Assembly (NCBI GenBank): GCA_964635935.1
Contig: CAZWNN010000002.1
Span: 1-40,850, forward strand
Origin: Candidatus Woesearchaeota archaeon
Lineage (GTDB): Archaea > Nanobdellota > Nanobdellia > Pacearchaeales > GW2011-AR1
DNA length: 40,850 nucleotides
Direction: 5' to 3'
Within the stretch, counting starts at the first letter, position 1. The number at the start of each line of letters is the position of its first letter. The translations under genes and the position numbers were made by a program. Below the pieces are notes generated by a model that did no database searches, was not told where the DNA came from, and saw only the letters and a program-made list of their open reading frames with translations. Below are positions 4,253 to 38,677 of this stretch, one piece after another.

Positions 4253-4585
4253 TTATCTTGTAAAAATCTCACATAATTTTTCTTCAACTTGTTTTATTTT
4301 TTCTTGATTTAGTTTTCCTGCTTTGTAGCTAATTCTTGATTTATGAATTGTGAACAAGATAGAGGGTCTAATAAAACTATCACGATTTATTCCTCCAGAT
4401 TGAAAATCTTTAGATTTTAGTTCTAATAAATCTTGATCAGGTCGAGGTTGTCCGGTAATTTGGGCAAGAATAACATGTCTTCCTTTTGAATTTGCTACAA
4501 CTAAACTTGGTCTTTTTTTAGAAAGATATTTATCTGAAAATGGGAATTGGAAGATTACAACTTCACCTTTTACAAATCCTTCCAT
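4253..4585 (-). CDS. mazF: MazF/PemK-family type II toxin (endoribonuclease)
   Basis: GEVVIFQFPFSD....KKRPSLVV...ILAQITG pattern typical of PemK/MazF. 16-nt overlap with the upstream antitoxin ORF. Confidence 0.75.
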   Translation of the reverse strand: MEGFVKGEVVIFQFPFSDKYLSKKRPSLVVANSKGRHVILAQITGQPRPDQDLLELKSKDFQSGGINRDSFIRPSILFTIHKSRISYKAGKLNQEKIKQVEEKLCEIFTR

Positions 4586-24688: not shown

Positions 24689-25639
24689 TGTAGAAGCAAC
24701 TGACATATGTCAGTAGCTAACCGAAAATTAGTTCTCATTTGATTTTAGGTTTGTTCTATGAAAAAAGAACAAATCAGGAAAGAATTTTTCAAGTTAAGAA
24801 TTAAACGCCATTCCTATAATCAATGTAGAAGGATATTGAAAGCAAAGTTTGAATATGAAGTTTCATTAAGAACATTATATAGATGGAGTAAAAGACTTAA
24901 TGAAACTGAATGGGATTTGAGAGACAAATCAAAAACACCGAAGAGGATTCATTACAAGATCACTTCTAGAATAGAAAAAAAGATTCTTGAGATTAGATCC
25001 AAAACCGGATGGGGTCAAGAAAGAATTGCAGACTATGTTAATGTTAGTCATTGGTCTGTTAATAAAATTCTTCATAAGTACAAATTAACAGAGCAATGTA
25101 AAAGAAAAAAGAAAAGAAACAATTATGTTCACTTTGAAAGAGAACATCCCAATACAATGTGGCAAATAGACCATAGTGATCAAAAAGTAAAAGACAAATG
25201 GTTAATTTCTGTTATTGATGATCATTCTCGTTTTAGCATTGGGTTGTTTGCGGTTAATAGAGTAACAACAAAAGTTGTGACGAAACTTTTAGATGATTTA
25301 ATTAAAATTCATGGAAAGCCGAGCCAAATTTTATCAGATAATGGCTCGGCTTATGGACTAAAAAGTAAACATTCTAAATTTGATAGGTGGTGCTGTCGAA
25401 GAGGAATTCACCATATTAGAAGTGCTGTCCATAGCCCGACAACTTGTGGCAAGGTTGAAAGGTTATTTCAAACAATTAAAAGAGAATTAAAGTTTTGCAA
25501 TAATGATCTCTAGTTTTTTAGAATGAGATATAACCATTTTAGAAGTCATAAAAGTCTTAATAACAAAACTCCGGCAGAGGTTTATTTTGATTTCGCTAGT
25601 TTATTTTAGGGGGTGACATATGTCACCTGCGTGCACACT
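24689..25639 (+). mobile_element. IS element (IS481/IS3-like DDE transposase) with about 24-bp imperfect terminal inverted repeats and a 14-bp direct duplication
   Basis: Left end TGTAGAAGCAACTGACATATGTCA versus reverse complement of right end TGTGCACGCAGGTGACATATGTCA (19/24). GACAGCCACCACCC occurs at 24675..24688 and 25640..25653. Confidence 0.7.
24758..25513 (+). CDS. DDE (rve-type) transposase interrupted by an in-frame TAG; frame continues to 25609
   Basis: N-terminal HTH, then WQIDHSD, LSDNGSAY and GKVERLFQTIKRE (D-D-E). After TAG 25511..25513 the same frame encodes FFRMRYNHFRSHKSLNNKTPAEVYFDFASLF, the conserved rve C-terminus. Confidence 0.75.
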   Translation: MKKEQIRKEFFKLRIKRHSYNQCRRILKAKFEYEVSLRTLYRWSKRLNETEWDLRDKSKTPKRIHYKITSRIEKKILEIRSKTGWGQERIADYVNVSHWSVNKILHKYKLTEQCKRKKKRNNYVHFEREHPNTMWQIDHSDQKVKDKWLISVIDDHSRFSIGLFAVNRVTTKVVTKLLDDLIKIHGKPSQILSDNGSAYGLKSKHSKFDRWCCRRGIHHIRSAVHSPTTCGKVERLFQTIKRELKFCNNDL

Positions 25640-33646: not shown

Positions 33647-33698
33647 CTCACAATTTACTCTTGTATTATTTCTAAATTTGTCAAGAGCAAATTGCTCG
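33647..33698 (+). repeat. Family S hairpin repeat copy 3
   Basis: CTCACAATTTACTCTTG-[AT loop]-CAAGAGCAAATTGCTCGG, 12/13 stem pairs. Lies in the mre11-rad50 spacer. Confidence 0.6.
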
Positions 33699-34973: not shown

Positions 34974-35085
34974 CCCCCTCGCAAAATCCGTTCACTTCGG
35001 CAATTCACAATTCACTCTTGTATAATATTTAAGATAGTCAAAAGCAAATTGTTCACACTCTCACATTTTGCTACCACCATAAAAG
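34974..35085 (+). repeat. Family T repeat copy 2 carrying a nested family S hairpin (copy 4, about 35005..35056)
   Basis: Outer parts CCCCCTCGCAAAATCCGTTCACTTCG ... CACATTTTGCTACCACC match 26874..26930. The inner TTCACAATTCACTCTTG...CAAAAGCAAATTGTTCAC is the S hairpin. Confidence 0.6.
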
Positions 35086-35373: not shown

Positions 35374-35886
35374 CTAAATCTCTAAAATTAATAGCTCTTC
35401 AAAAAATAATTTTTTTGTTTTTATTATTATTGGTTTGTGTTTTTTTATTTTGTCTTGAGGTGTGTGGCTTGATATGAGAAGGAAGATTTTTCCGTCGGGA
35501 TTTAGATGGGCTTTTGCTTGTTTGATGAATTTTAGGGTTATTTCGTCCCCGTGCTTGCCACCGGTTGTGTCTGGTTTGGAGTCGTGTTTGTGGGCGGGTA
35601 AATATGGGGGGTTGAATGTTATTAGGTCAAACTTGTTTTTTATTTTTTCAAAGAGGTTGGACTTGATTGTGCTGAATCCTAGTTTTTTTGTGTGGGTTAT
35701 TGCTTCTGAATCTATGTCTGCACATGTTATGTTTTGTTTTGGAATTCCTGCTTGTGCTGCTGTTTGTGCTAAGATTCCTGAGCCTGTTCCCATGTCAAGA
35801 TATTTTATGTTTTTGATTTTTAGATTCTTTAGATAATTAGAAAGAAATTCTGCAAAGAAAAATGAGTCTTCTTGTGGTGAGTACAT
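35374..35886 (-). CDS. HemK/PrmC/Mtq2-family SAM-dependent methyltransferase (NPPY)
   Basis: SAM motif I DMGTGSGILA and motif IV FNPPY. The start codon lies 1 nt after the RT stop. Confidence 0.75.
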   Translation of the reverse strand: MYSPQEDSFFFAEFLSNYLKNLKIKNIKYLDMGTGSGILAQTAAQAGIPKQNITCADIDSEAITHTKKLGFSTIKSNLFEKIKNKFDLITFNPPYLPAHKHDSKPDTTGGKHGDEITLKFIKQAKAHLNPDGKIFLLISSHTPQDKIKKHKPIIIKTKKLFFEELLILEI

Positions 35887-35887
35887 T

Positions 35888-36931
35888 TTATTTAATTGAG
35901 TTATTTATCTTAATTACAAGATTTTTCCTTAATTTAAAAGTATTTGCCCATTTTGCATAAGCTTGCCATCCTTGATAACTTTCTAGAATTTTTTCTTTAT
36001 CTATTATTTGACTTCTAAACAAATTAAGTTTGTTTTCCATATTCTTAATGTTTCTTCTTCTTAATAATTTGAAATAATAAAAAATTCTAAAACCGACAAA
36101 ATCAATTCCTTTTGATAATGGAATAATGCGTGATTTCTGTGGGTGAAGTTCTAATTTTAAATTCTCTTTTAGAAATTTGTTTATTTGTTTTTTCCAAATT
36201 TGTAATTGTTCTTTTGATTTATGAAGAAGAATAAAGTCATCAACATAACGTATATAGTATTTTACTTTTAATTTATGTTTGACAAAATAATCTAACTCAT
36301 TGAGATAGAGGTTAGCGAAGAATTGGCTTGTTAAATTTCCTAAGGGCATTCCTTTTTCTTTATATCCATTTTCAAGTATCTTCTTTATTAACCAAATAAC
36401 TTTTTTATCTTTTATTTTTCTTTTAATTATGTTTAACAAAATTTCATGATTTACTTCCTGGAAATAGTGCTTGATATCTGCTTTTAAGCAATAACCTTTT
36501 ATTTGATTATTATTAAACCAGCCATTTAATTTGCCATTTCTTGAAATTTTTTTCATAAACTTATAAAATCTTTTTAAAGCAAATAGATTACCTTTTCCTA
36601 TTCTATTTGCACATGAATCATAAATAAATCTTTTATCAAAAATTGGTTCAAGGATTCTTATTAAAGCATGATGAACAATTCTGTCTCTAAAAGCAGACTT
36701 ACTTATTTTTCGTGTTTTTGGATCTCTTAAAATAAATGTTTTTAGTGGTTTAGGAGAATAAGTCAAGTTTTTTAATTCGTATTGCAATTTCAATAGATTT
36801 TTATACAGATTAGCTTCAAACTCAAGAACATAATTTTTCTTAGTTTTTCCTTTTCGTGCTTTTTTCCATGCAAAGGTTAGATTATCTAAGGAGATAATTT
36901 TATTGTATAAATTTTTATAAGATTTCATCAT
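35888..36931 (-). CDS. DGR-type reverse transcriptase
   Basis: RT motifs include IRYVDDFILL (YVDD) and PLGNLTSQFFANLYLNELD (the I/LGxxxSQ signature of DGR RTs). The TR sits 21 nt upstream of the ATG. Confidence 0.9.
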   Translation of the reverse strand: MMKSYKNLYNKIISLDNLTFAWKKARKGKTKKNYVLEFEANLYKNLLKLQYELKNLTYSPKPLKTFILRDPKTRKISKSAFRDRIVHHALIRILEPIFDKRFIYDSCANRIGKGNLFALKRFYKFMKKISRNGKLNGWFNNNQIKGYCLKADIKHYFQEVNHEILLNIIKRKIKDKKVIWLIKKILENGYKEKGMPLGNLTSQFFANLYLNELDYFVKHKLKVKYYIRYVDDFILLHKSKEQLQIWKKQINKFLKENLKLELHPQKSRIIPLSKGIDFVGFRIFYYFKLLRRRNIKNMENKLNLFRSQIIDKEKILESYQGWQAYAKWANTFKLRKNLVIKINNSIK

Positions 36932-36952
36932 AAGTGTCTTGTGAACTAAGGC

Positions 36953-37035
36953 TATTCCGAAAGCATGACCGTTCCTGTTATCATCATGGTAGTTGCCATT
37001 GACATTAAGCCTGTCGTTGTAGTCGTTGAGCGCGG
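36953..37035 (-). repeat. DGR template repeat (TR)
   Basis: Non-coding copy of the VRs. The sense strand reads ..GCGCTCAACGACTACAACGACAGGCTTAATGTCAATGGCAACTACCATGATGATAACAGGAACGGTCATGCTTTCGGAATA, with 7 AAY codons in the VR frame. Confidence 0.9.
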
Positions 37036-37206
37036 CCAGACATGTAGTCTATTAATTTAAAGTAAATCACCAAAGTTTCAAGTTTCATTTTCATTACTAT
37101 TTGTCACTTTTGAATTTTATGGCTTTTTTAAAAAGCACTATTAACAGACATGTAGCCTTAGTTCATTGGAGAGTGCCTCCCTAAGACAAATTATTAGAAA
37201 AAAGGT

Positions 37207-37235
37207 TATTTATAAACTTAACTTAAAAAAATTTG
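37207..37235 (-). promoter_or_regulatory. Candidate promoter for the TR-RT transcript
   Basis: The minus strand reads CCACAAATTTTTTTAAGTTAAGTTTATAAATA: a CACAA box plus TATA-like boxes, upstream of the 5' arm of the TR-enclosing helix. Confidence 0.3.
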
Positions 37236-37236
37236 T

Positions 37237-37251
37237 GGTGCCTTCGGCACC
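37237..37251 (-). promoter_or_regulatory. GC-rich hairpin 6 nt downstream of VR1 (candidate DGR target-recognition element)
   Basis: GGTGCC-TTC-GGCACC (sense strand GGTGCC-GAA-GGCACC). The TR lacks an equivalent. Confidence 0.6.
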
Positions 37252-37254
37252 TAA

Positions 37255-37965
37255 TTATACCCCGAAAGCATGACCGCCCCAGTCATCAACACGGCAGTCG
37301 CCACCGACACAAAGCCCGCCGTAGTAGCCGTCGAGCGCGGTTACTCTTTGAACAGGAGATTTTCCTTCTTGAATATCTAACCCCCATGTTTTTGGTGGAT
37401 CTTTAAACTCTTCTGAAACTTCTGCTAATCTTTCTGCACCTTCTTGTCCAAAACTTGCAACAACAAATCCATCTTTTGCTAAGGATTCTTTAGTGTGTTC
37501 TCCTATTGAATAACTTCCCTTAGGGGCAAATCTTATGGTTCCATCAGAACTATATAAAATAGGGCTTCCTGCAGGACTTTCACTTAATTTTCTTTCTAAA
37601 TCTTCTTGATCTAAGGGCTGACTTACTCCTATTGCTTCTGGGTCTGATACAACATAAACACCTTTTGAAGTCCATAAATTCTGGTCAAAACTCCATAGCC
37701 ATCTATTTTTCATAATTAAATCTCTGATTTTTGTGATTTCTTCTCTTTCCTTGAAGTCTTCAGGGCCGCAATATGCAGCATGAAGGAGATATGCTGTTTG
37801 TTCTGCAATTGGGAGTGTTAATCCTCTTGCTAAAATTCCTTTTCCTACTGTTGGATAATTATGTGGACCTTGTGAAGGATGAACAAAGATAATGTTTCCA
37901 TCTCTTCCAGGAACTTCTATTTCAGTTCTTCCTCTCCTTACTTCATAAGTTTTTGCTTCTTCCAT
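37255..37965 (-). CDS. DGR target protein 1 (VR at extreme C-terminus)
   Basis: 236 aa, ends ..TALDGYYGGLCVGGDCRVDDWGGHAFGV*. Paralog of 37967..38677. No N-terminal signal or TM. Confidence 0.85.
   Translation of the reverse strand: MEEAKTYEVRRGRTEIEVPGRDGNIIFVHPSQGPHNYPTVGKGILARGLTLPIAEQTAYLLHAAYCGPEDFKEREEITKIRDLIMKNRWLWSFDQNLWTSKGVYVVSDPEAIGVSQPLDQEDLERKLSESPAGSPILYSSDGTIRFAPKGSYSIGEHTKESLAKDGFVVASFGQEGAERLAEVSEEFKDPPKTWGLDIQEGKSPVQRVTALDGYYGGLCVGGDCRVDDWGGHAFGV
37258..37340 (-). repeat. DGR variable repeat VR1
   Basis: 79-nt core 37262..37340 versus TR 36957..37035: 17 differences, all at TR plus-strand T (sense-strand A). Confidence 0.9.
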
Positions 37966-37966
37966 T

Positions 37967-38677
37967 TTATCTTTTTTCTCTCTCAGATTCAGCGCGACTG
38001 GCTTCGCCAGTTTTCAATACCCCGAAAGCATGACCGTTCCTGCTACCACCACGGTAGCTGCCATCGACACCAAGCCCGTCGCCGTAGCCGTCGAGCGCGG
38101 TATATCTCTTATCCTTTACTTCTGAATGATCTACTCCATGAATATAAGTCTCCTTCTTGTCAACAGCTTTAGCAACTTTTTCAACAATAGGGAGCATATC
38201 CTCTCCTCCAACCTGAGCCACTAAATAAGGATTTTTTAAAAGATCTGAAATTGGCATGTATCTTGTTTTAAATCCTAGCTTAACAAGTCTTACTCTTTTA
38301 TCTCCAACCTCAATTAATTTAAGCAATCCAACACTATCTGAAGGCATAGTTCCATCAATATCATCATAAACAAGAACTCCTCCAGGGAATGCTGTGCTTC
38401 TTGTAGAGGTCCATAAGTAATCATCTCTGAAGATTCTTAATAAATCAGCAAAACCTGGTTCATCTTCATTTTGAAGAGCTATATTTAATAAAGAAAATGT
38501 TTGGGCGGTTGTAGGTCTTAATAATCCTTGAGAATCAATTTCTCCCATAACCTTTGGGTAATTGTTTGGACCGACTAAGGGTGTAACAAAGGTTACAATC
38601 TCGCCTCTGTGAGGAATATCGATTTCAGTTCTTGCTATTCTTATTTTTCCTCCGCCCTCTAAGGCTCTTGTTTCCAT
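37967..38677 (-). CDS. DGR target protein 2 (VR followed by a 16-aa tail)
   Basis: 236 aa, ..TALDGYGDGLGVDGSYRGGSRNGHAFGVLKTGEASRAESEREKR*. The stop lies 1 nt before the target1 ATG. Confidence 0.85.
   Translation of the reverse strand: METRALEGGGKIRIARTEIDIPHRGEIVTFVTPLVGPNNYPKVMGEIDSQGLLRPTTAQTFSLLNIALQNEDEPGFADLLRIFRDDYLWTSTRSTAFPGGVLVYDDIDGTMPSDSVGLLKLIEVGDKRVRLVKLGFKTRYMPISDLLKNPYLVAQVGGEDMLPIVEKVAKAVDKKETYIHGVDHSEVKDKRYTALDGYGDGLGVDGSYRGGSRNGHAFGVLKTGEASRAESEREKR
37997..38011 (-). promoter_or_regulatory. GC-rich hairpin 6 nt downstream of VR2 (inside the coding tail)
   Basis: ACTGGC-TTC-GCCAGT. Same loop and same 6-nt spacing from the VR end as the VR1 hairpin. Confidence 0.6.
38018..38100 (-). 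repeat. DGR variable repeat VR2
   Basis: 79-nt core 38022..38100 versus TR: 13 differences, all at TR sense-strand A (all A->G). Confidence 0.9.

Follow-up and report, generated by a model that had tools for sequence, protein, structure and literature searches.

A diversity-generating retroelement without a detectable accessory gene in a DPANN archaeon carries an RT-16 RNA directly 5′ of its template repeat

We analysed a 40,850-nucleotide (nt) stretch of contig CAZWNN010000002.1 from a Candidatus Woesearchaeota archaeon (assembly GCA_964635935.1), hereafter the window, whose minus strand carries a compact locus with the organisation of a diversity-generating retroelement (DGR). Along that strand, the order is target gene 2, target gene 1, a TATA-like box, an RNA of the Rfam family RT-16, a template repeat (TR) and the gene of a reverse transcriptase (RT), and a hairpin lies past the variable repeat (VR) of each target gene (Table 1). 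The locus shows TR/VR differences restricted to adenines, an RT with the DGR signature, stop-proof VRs within the target genes, a non-coding TR close to the RT, a pair of initiation of mutagenic homing sequences (IMH in the VRs, IMH* in the TR) and a hairpin found after the VRs only.

Table 1. Features of the retroelement locus and their positions in the window.
Feature	Position	Strand	Description
Target gene 2, 236 aa	37967..38677	minus	Contains VR2; the hairpin is encoded within the 16-aa tail that comes next
VR2	38018..38100	minus	Core with 13 A>G; IMH with the fixed GG
Hairpin ACTGGC-GAA-GCCAGT	37997..38011	minus	7 nt past VR2, within the target 2 tail; target-site hairpin/cruciform element
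Target gene 1, 236 aa	37255..37965	minus	VR1 at the extreme C-terminus; ends GGG GTA TAA right after VR1
VR1	37258..37340	minus	Core with 13 A>G and 4 A>T; IMH with the fixed GG
Hairpin GGTGCC-GAA-GGCACC	37237..37251	minus	7 nt past VR1, then a T-run; -6.3 kcal/mol, z = -2.2
TATA-box-like TTTATAAA	37209..37216	minus	30 nt upstream of the RT-16 5′ end
RT-16 5′ stem region	37153..37188	minus	Strands 37183-37188 and 37153-37165 pair with post-TR sequence around an inner hairpin
RT-16 RNA (Rfam RF03019)	37039..37186	minus	Ends 3 nt short of the TR
TR	36953..37035	minus	Non-coding, 83 nt; 3′ end GGAATA = IMH*
Post-TR strand UAGCCUUAGUUCA-C-AAGACA	36935..36954	minus	3′ side of the bipartite long-range duplex
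DGR reverse transcriptase, 347 aa	35888..36931	minus	RVT_1, E 1.9e-20; LGNLTSQ and YVDD in the translation

The three repeat segments were compared by exact alignment on the minus (sense) strand over a core of 79 nt. The TR core (37035..36957) contains 24 adenines. Relative to it, the VR1 core (37340..37262) carries 17 mismatches, of which 13 are A>G and four A>T, and the VR2 core (38100..38022) carries 13, A>G without exception, which gives a window spectrum of 26 A>G, 4 A>T and no A>C. All 30 core mismatches fall on TR adenines, 21 of the 24 adenines are altered in at least one VR, and nine are altered in both. If mismatches were placed at random, the chance that every one would hit an adenine is 4e-12 for VR1 and 9e-9 for VR2 (hypergeometric). 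A first-pass annotation of this DNA, made from the letters alone, had reported the same mismatch counts and the same confinement to sense adenines, and had pointed to enrichment at A and to any mismatch at a template C, G or T as the places to look. Realignment reproduces its counts, the enrichment is as strong as the probabilities above, and the core of neither VR holds a mismatch at a C, G or T of the TR. A 77-nt pattern of the repeat with adenines masked matches the window three times, at the TR, VR1 and VR2, where no match is expected, and a search of the window for further VRs or IMH motifs returned none besides VR1 and VR2. One base 5′ of the repeat the TR has G (37036) and the VRs have A (37341, 38101); this mismatch is simply the edge of the repeat.

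In the VR reading frame the TR translates as AALNDYNDRLNVNGNYHDDNRNGHAFGI, with seven AAY codons. The core adenines occupy codon position 1 (nine) or position 2 (15) and never position 3, and no change of a TR adenine can reach a stop codon, with about 1e14 peptides possible. Every core change in VR1 and VR2 is non-synonymous, and both VRs lie at the 3′ ends of open reading frames (ORFs) that remain open; the phase analysis and the ORF listing bear out the earlier description of an AAY-rich, stop-free template and of open VRs. The DNA of the two target genes is only 55.5% identical outside the VRs, whereas the TR, VR1 and VR2 agree at each of the 56 non-A positions of the 83-nt repeat. Together these two figures imply that TR sequence overwrote both VRs once the genes had diverged, and the identity of the non-A positions matches the prediction of repeated overwriting of both VRs from one template. 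The first-pass annotation had noted different substitution patterns in VR1 and VR2 and had concluded that the two had diversified independently. The patterns do differ; independent, ongoing diversification of the window copy is a deduction from them rather than an observation.

At its 3′ end the repeat reads GGAATA in the TR and GGGGTA in both VRs, and the 4-nt extension of the core to 83 nt, already described in the first pass, is thereby confirmed. We examined the corresponding position in relatives of the same RT clade, taking the TR end as the point where TR/VR homology stops and counting non-redundant VR copies. At the TR terminus, AA(A)T[AG] corresponds to GG(G)T[AG] in 56 of 56 VR copies, whereas internal AAT[AG] sites of the same TRs carry GG in just 24 of 129 copies (Fisher p = 1.4e-28). 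In addition, GGA>GGG is the sole synonymous change in either window VR, so that selection on the protein fails to explain the terminal GG. These comparisons support the AA/GG contrast as a fixed donor/recipient mark, IMH* versus IMH, as the annotation had suggested. The same pair is published for Nanoarchaeota DGRs of DUSEL4, which have TGGGGT in the IMH, TGGAAT in the IMH* and hairpins with GRA trinucleotide loops (Paul et al. 2015, PMC4372165).

The hairpins past VR1 and VR2 share their offset, a stem of 6 bp and a GAA loop, and have different stem sequences. Folding found no hairpin of the GAA-loop type after the TR. In relatives the hairpins sit at the same offset, with a GRA loop (GAA the commonest) and covarying stems. 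High-confidence GC-rich inverted repeats follow the VR in only 34% of DGRs (Wu et al., PMC5758913); a post-VR inverted repeat supports membership of the class and is not required for it. At sibling loci, a CGCAAAAAA(T)n motif was also seen 10-25 nt past most VR hairpins, and window VR1 has ACAAATTTTTTT there; this motif could act as an archaeal terminator or belong to the target site.

The RT gene starts 21 nt downstream of the TR, and its ORF is intact and retains the catalytic motifs as well as the DGR RT signature [I/V/L]GxxxSQ (PMC7826257). At least 6,959 relatives of the RT were found at E ≤ 1e-40, and those with a named source come from Pacearchaeota, Nanoarchaeota or unclassified archaea. 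For comparison, we fetched 14 genome loci via the target and 80 metagenome loci via the RT. Wherever a locus had an RT and enough flanking sequence the layout was constant, with one or two targets, RT-16, the TR, about 21 nt and the RT. Across 19 VR copies of the GGAAT-type subset, the TR/VR differences of this clade amount to 165 A>G, 55 A>T and 12 A>C against 10 at non-A positions. This A>G-rich spectrum is unlike that of the Bordetella phage BPP-1, which favours A>T; the BPP-1 enzyme bRT misincorporates dA most often in vitro, which would appear as A>T (PMC7826257). The contrast could reflect a difference between the enzymes or selection.

The RNA directly 5′ of the TR scores 102 bits with the RT-16 covariance model (gathering score 50, E 1e-16), over model positions 1-158 of 158. 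RT-16 exceeded the gathering score in the window, at all three RT-bearing genome loci and at 19 of 20 metagenome loci, always ending a few nt before the TR, and its placement directly 5′ of the TR was seen in the window and at loci L002, L005, L010 and L016-L093. RT-16 was described as one of 19 RNAs near RT genes, among which RT-10 alone was assigned to a DGR and many others were suggested to have retron roles (Weinberg et al. 2017, PMC5737381). In 17 of 23 loci, a simple positional motif check placed a TATA-like motif 29-32 nt upstream of the RT-16 5′ end, and the window copy, TTTATAAA, is a putative archaeal promoter of an RT-16-TR-RT transcript. The AGUA...GAA internal loop of RT-16 is a sarcin-ricin-like loop candidate in a JAR3D survey of Rfam (PMC13085918); in the window it lies at about 37085-37110 on the minus strand (AAUAGUAAUG...AUGAAAC).

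The strands of the RT-16 P1 stem have covarying partners past the boundary of the Rfam model, just 3′ of the TR, in sequence that runs straight into the RT start codon. There, GCCUUAG-UUCA-CAAGAC complements both strands of the RT-16 5′ stem (CUAAGGC and GUCUUAG), and the partners change together in relatives (for example CUAGGGC:GCCCUAG, GCCAAGGC:GCCUUGGC and CCUGGUCU:AGACCAGG). The helix was tested with anchors chosen blind to pairing: the eight nt that immediately precede the conserved YYACA of RT-16, and the eight that immediately follow the TR end. Among 32 non-redundant elements, pairing held for 88.3% of cells, compared with 71.9% in shuffles, none of 500 of which reached the observed value. 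Changes on both sides were seen at seven of the eight helix pairs, the covariation score was 0.566 against 0.297, and registers slid along the helix were 14-53% paired. Furthermore, native upstream:downstream duplexes had a mean energy of -17.8 kcal/mol against -11.8 for mismatched partners (p 1e-12). The minimum-free-energy (MFE) fold of the 268-nt RNA of the window contains long-range helices of 13 bp (37153-37165 with 36942-36954) and 6 bp (37183-37188 with 36935-36940) around an inner hairpin, which together enclose the RT-16 core and the TR. A candidate primer pairing spotted by eye, AUUC:GAAU with the conserved AAAAUUCAA loop, was dropped because it showed no covariation.

The two target genes lie in tandem, and their proteins share 31% identity over the full length (E 5e-22). 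Target 1 has 77 homologues of about 240 aa, of which the few with a named source come from Pacearchaeota, Nanoarchaeota or metagenome-assembled genomes of unclassified archaea. In every homologue the C-terminus is hypervariable over some 25 residues, closing with xAFGV. The VR is 26-28 residues long, and HAFGV, which the IMH encodes, forms the last strand in the model. Pfam and NCBIfam gave no domain in either target, Pfam gave none in 27 family members, and a profile search of PDB sequences with the target family returned nothing at E ≤ 1, AvpA included. Structural models were then compared. The AlphaFold (AF2) model of target 1 reached a predicted local distance difference test (pLDDT) score of 95.2, had no Foldseek match in PDB or BFVD at E < 0.001 and showed faint C-type-lectin matches only (mincle, TMt 0.41). 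The AF2 model of target 2 (pLDDT 84.6) matched AvpA (5IOO_A) with E 5.9e-5, probability 1.00 and TM scores of 0.55/0.61 over 218 columns at 13% identity. AvpA has a C-type-lectin fold, a 27-residue VR and an invariant last strand, RFxGV, encoded by the IMH (Handa et al. 2016, PMC5006420, PDB 5IOO). A provisional description of the targets as 'fold unassigned', drawn from the target 1 model, was dropped once the target 2 model had matched AvpA. On the modelled structure, target 2 is a predicted AvpA-type variable protein of C-type-lectin fold, and the 31% identity between the two proteins suggests an AvpA-like lectin fold for target 1 as well.

Many genes of the target family were also observed with no RT within 5 kb (L001, L003, L004, L006-L009 and L011). 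Most of these RT-less homologues retain the GGGGTA end and some a hairpin, others have a degraded end (GGGATA, GGAGTA), and L009 keeps a partial RT-16 downstream of the target. Such genes may be remote targets or decayed cassettes.

A sibling DGR was recovered from two replicate groundwater metagenomes (L047:2389-2486 and L048:37-134). Over 1.9 kb they are separated by 11 differences, every one inside the variable part of the VR, nine at TR adenines and two at non-A sites beside adenines. We regard this pair as natural turnover of the VR in the sibling and as evidence of natural activity in this clade.

The locus belongs to a known class, the nanoarchaeal/DPANN DGRs of Paul et al. 2015 and Handa et al. 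2016, and has architecture A of Wu et al. 2018. Like the window element, the DUSEL4 Nanoarchaeota DGRs (PMC4372165) reside on a DPANN chromosome, pair a TGGGGT-type IMH with a TGGAAT-type IMH* and have a GRA-loop hairpin past the VR that may fall inside the target ORF, as it does here in target 2. Shared with DUSEL4 and AvpA is a short VR of about 27 residues that is AAY-rich and stop-proof, with an IMH that encodes the last, invariant beta-strand (RFxGV in AvpA, HAFGV here). AvpA and the window targets have no sequence similarity detectable in the PDB profile search (E ≤ 1), and the VR is internal in AvpA, whereas VR1 of the window stands at the very C-terminus. Between target and RT, Paul et al. 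2015 (PMC4372165) mark ORFs of Avd size; the interval between target 1 and the RT in the window holds RT-16 and no ORF of more than 35 aa. Architecture A DGRs (Wu et al. 2018, PMC5758913) resemble the window in their target-TR-RT order, the lack of an avd, HRDC, MSL or CH1 gene and the presence of multiple adjacent targets, and the window falls in the set of candidate phyla radiation (CPR)/DPANN elements with unclassified VR types in that study. No conserved structured RNA beside the TR was described there, whereas the window has RT-16. Compared with the Rfam description of RT-16 (PMC5737381), the window gives a full-length match, here directly 5′ of a DGR template and with P1 partners past the model boundary.

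With the BPP-1 DGR (mtd-avd-TR-brt) the window shares the adenine-specific flow from TR to VR, the [I/V/L]GxxxSQ motif, the IMH/IMH* pair and the post-VR hairpin. Pairing of the sequences that flank the TR is also common to both, with 11 canonical bp in BPP-1 and 13 + 6 bp in the window fold. In the Bordetella phage, the DGR RNA forms a duplex between its upstream and downstream flanks of the TR, and the cDNA terminates just before this duplex; 'cPRT Stop' duplexes of this kind, 13 bp long on average, were predicted for 207 of 278 DGRs that contain Avd (Handa et al., bioRxiv 10.1101/2023.10.23.563531). The predicted window duplex shows the same upstream:downstream pairing and resembles a cPRT Stop. 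The two systems differ in that BPP-1 has Avd and none was detected in the window. Moreover, the structured RNA of BPP-1 (Sp, 140 nt, Rfam RT-10) lies 3′ of the TR, whereas RT-16, of about 150 nt, lies 5′ of it, and the window leaves only the 21-nt interval between TR and RT start codon, unlike BPP-1 with its Sp. In BPP-1 a primer strand (Sp 47-56) separates the TR from the stop duplex, whereas the window duplex begins at the last TR bases and no such strand was found.

The IMH/IMH* pair, the hairpin type and the target fold were thus already published in 2015-2016 and are not new. The only part that we did not find described is the arrangement of RT-16 and the enclosing duplex, which is a property of the clade rather than of the window. 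This link between RT-16 and DGRs, and the duplex, were absent from the literature searched; Paul et al. 2017 (PMC5436926), which lay outside that search, may describe the RNA.

We put the probability at roughly 90% that the locus is a chromosomal, accessory-gene-free DGR of a DPANN archaeon, with the order target(s)-TR-RT, that works by the following proposed mechanism. A transcript from the TATA-like promoter would carry the RT-16 RNA, the 83-nt TR and the RT mRNA. The RT-16 domain and the covarying duplex would enclose the template and probably position it on the RT, which would begin copying the TR just upstream of GGAAUA and continue to the RT-16 3′ stem, with errors opposite adenines only and dC as the main one. 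RT-16 and the duplex would probably also make the cDNA end at the 5′ edge of the TR, in the manner of the cPRT Stop duplex of the Bordetella phage. The cDNA would then replace the homologous 83-nt VR at the 3′ end of either of the tandem AvpA-like target genes, rewriting up to 16 codons and never creating a stop. The direction from TR to VR would be set by GGGGTA (IMH) in the VR versus GGAATA (IMH*) in the TR, together with the VR-only GAA-loop hairpin. For the transcription start, the priming, the role of RT-16 and the present-day activity of the window copy, this scheme is what we infer from the sequence. The anatomy of the locus, its adenine specificity, the conservation of every element among relatives and the covariation are seen in the sequences themselves.

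Three other accounts of the repeats were weighed. The window element could be a fossil whose VRs were diversified in the past and which has since lost retrohoming. Current variation of the window copy is not directly evidenced, and the RT-less target homologues, some with a degraded IMH (GGGATA, GGAGTA), show that cassettes of this family do decay. A fossil nevertheless fits poorly with an RT ORF that is intact and keeps its catalytic motifs, with hairpins, IMH, RT-16 and long-range duplex that are all intact, and with the absence of any non-A mismatch at 56 positions in both VRs despite 55.5% gene identity elsewhere; in addition, the sibling element varies between replicate samples within the VR only. 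We consider this account unlikely.

Less probable by a clear step is that the A>G changes stem from A-to-I deamination of the TR RNA followed by faithful reverse transcription, with no selective misincorporation by the RT. A>G makes up 26 of the 30 window changes, 165 of the 232 counted for the clade and all of those in VR2. This predominance would agree with the account, as would the preference of BPP-1 bRT for dA in vitro, that is, for A>T instead (PMC7826257). Deamination, however, cannot give the A>T changes (four in VR1, 55 in the clade) or the 12 A>C changes in the clade; no deaminase lies within or beside the cassette, and the RT bears the DGR-specific motif. The account is thus very improbable. 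Tandem paralogous targets also make gene conversion conceivable, so that the repeats might be ordinary paralogous segments or conversion tracts with a coincidental A bias. This reading is effectively refuted by the present data, given the all-on-A probabilities of 4e-12 and 9e-9, an identical layout in dozens of loci and a TR that is non-coding, stands between a structured RNA and the RT and is the sole copy to retain every adenine.

Against the accessory-gene-free DGR and its proposed mechanism stand several observations. No Avd-like match was found in the neighbouring genes or in the 10 unassigned ORFs of the window (93-183 aa). Avd accompanies about 74% of DGRs and is not defining for the class. 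Because Avd is poorly conserved, a divergent copy may lie elsewhere in the genome, and because no Avd-like gene was found, the BPP-1 mechanism is not transferable wholesale. For the window copy, the sole hint of population heterogeneity is a weak one. Contig L015 (Ga0265594_1047407), from another assembly, corresponds to window 35619-37271 (1,653 nt, 100% identical) and stops 10 nt into the invariant 3′ end of VR1; an assembler would break at this point if the VR varied in the population, so that this contig end may point to heterogeneity. Among the targets, 5IOO was not among the 50 Foldseek matches listed for the target 1 model. As for the RNA, the whole-RNA fold energy is ordinary (z = -1.3), and the upstream strand of the long-range helix doubles as the 3′ strand of the Rfam P1 hairpin. 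Since this strand is common to both, the local P1 and the long-range pairing are mutually alternative. Finally, a search by duplex energies with the last 16 nt of the TR, comparing native with mismatched partners, found no cis primer strand, either in the RT-16 core (p 0.09) or in the first 140 nt past the TR (p 0.14).

More tentatively, and at somewhat less than even odds, we propose that a very large DPANN DGR clade, apparently devoid of Avd, has RT-16 as its dedicated RNA scaffold in cis. RT-16 would lie 5′ of the template rather than 3′ as in Bordetella (Sp/RT-10), and its 5′ stem would exchange the local P1 for a bipartite duplex with the 20 nt past the TR, looping out the template on the RT mRNA. 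If this is true, RT-16 may replace the roles of bacterial Avd and Sp, and the exchange of hairpin for duplex could be a switch that licenses cDNA synthesis.

Taken alone, the window adds one more well-formed DGR to a clade of thousands and matters little. For the orphan family RT-16, however, the comparison provides a concrete genomic role, directly 5′ of the template in an archaeal DGR clade that apparently lacks Avd. It also extends the template-enclosing upstream:downstream duplex, analysed earlier only in Avd-containing DGRs, to DGRs without a detectable Avd. A small, protein-poor DGR of an RT and an RNA of about 270 nt is testable in vitro and might suit engineered targeted mutagenesis.

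The genes that surround the cassette are archaeal housekeeping genes, encoding RNase J, Mre11/Rad50-like proteins, RadA, MCM, eRF1, a topoisomerase and HemK2/MTQ2, and the element is therefore placed on the chromosome. Elsewhere in the window, an ORF on the plus strand (24758-25513) contains an rve integrase core and HTH_32 and is probably a transposase of the insertion sequence (IS) type, and an ORF on the minus strand (4253-4585) encodes a PemK/MazF-like toxin (Pfam E 4.9e-13). Two intergenic copies of a 50-nt direct repeat, 82% identical, flank the Mre11-like gene (33648-33697 and 35005-35054) and may represent a shared promoter or regulatory element.

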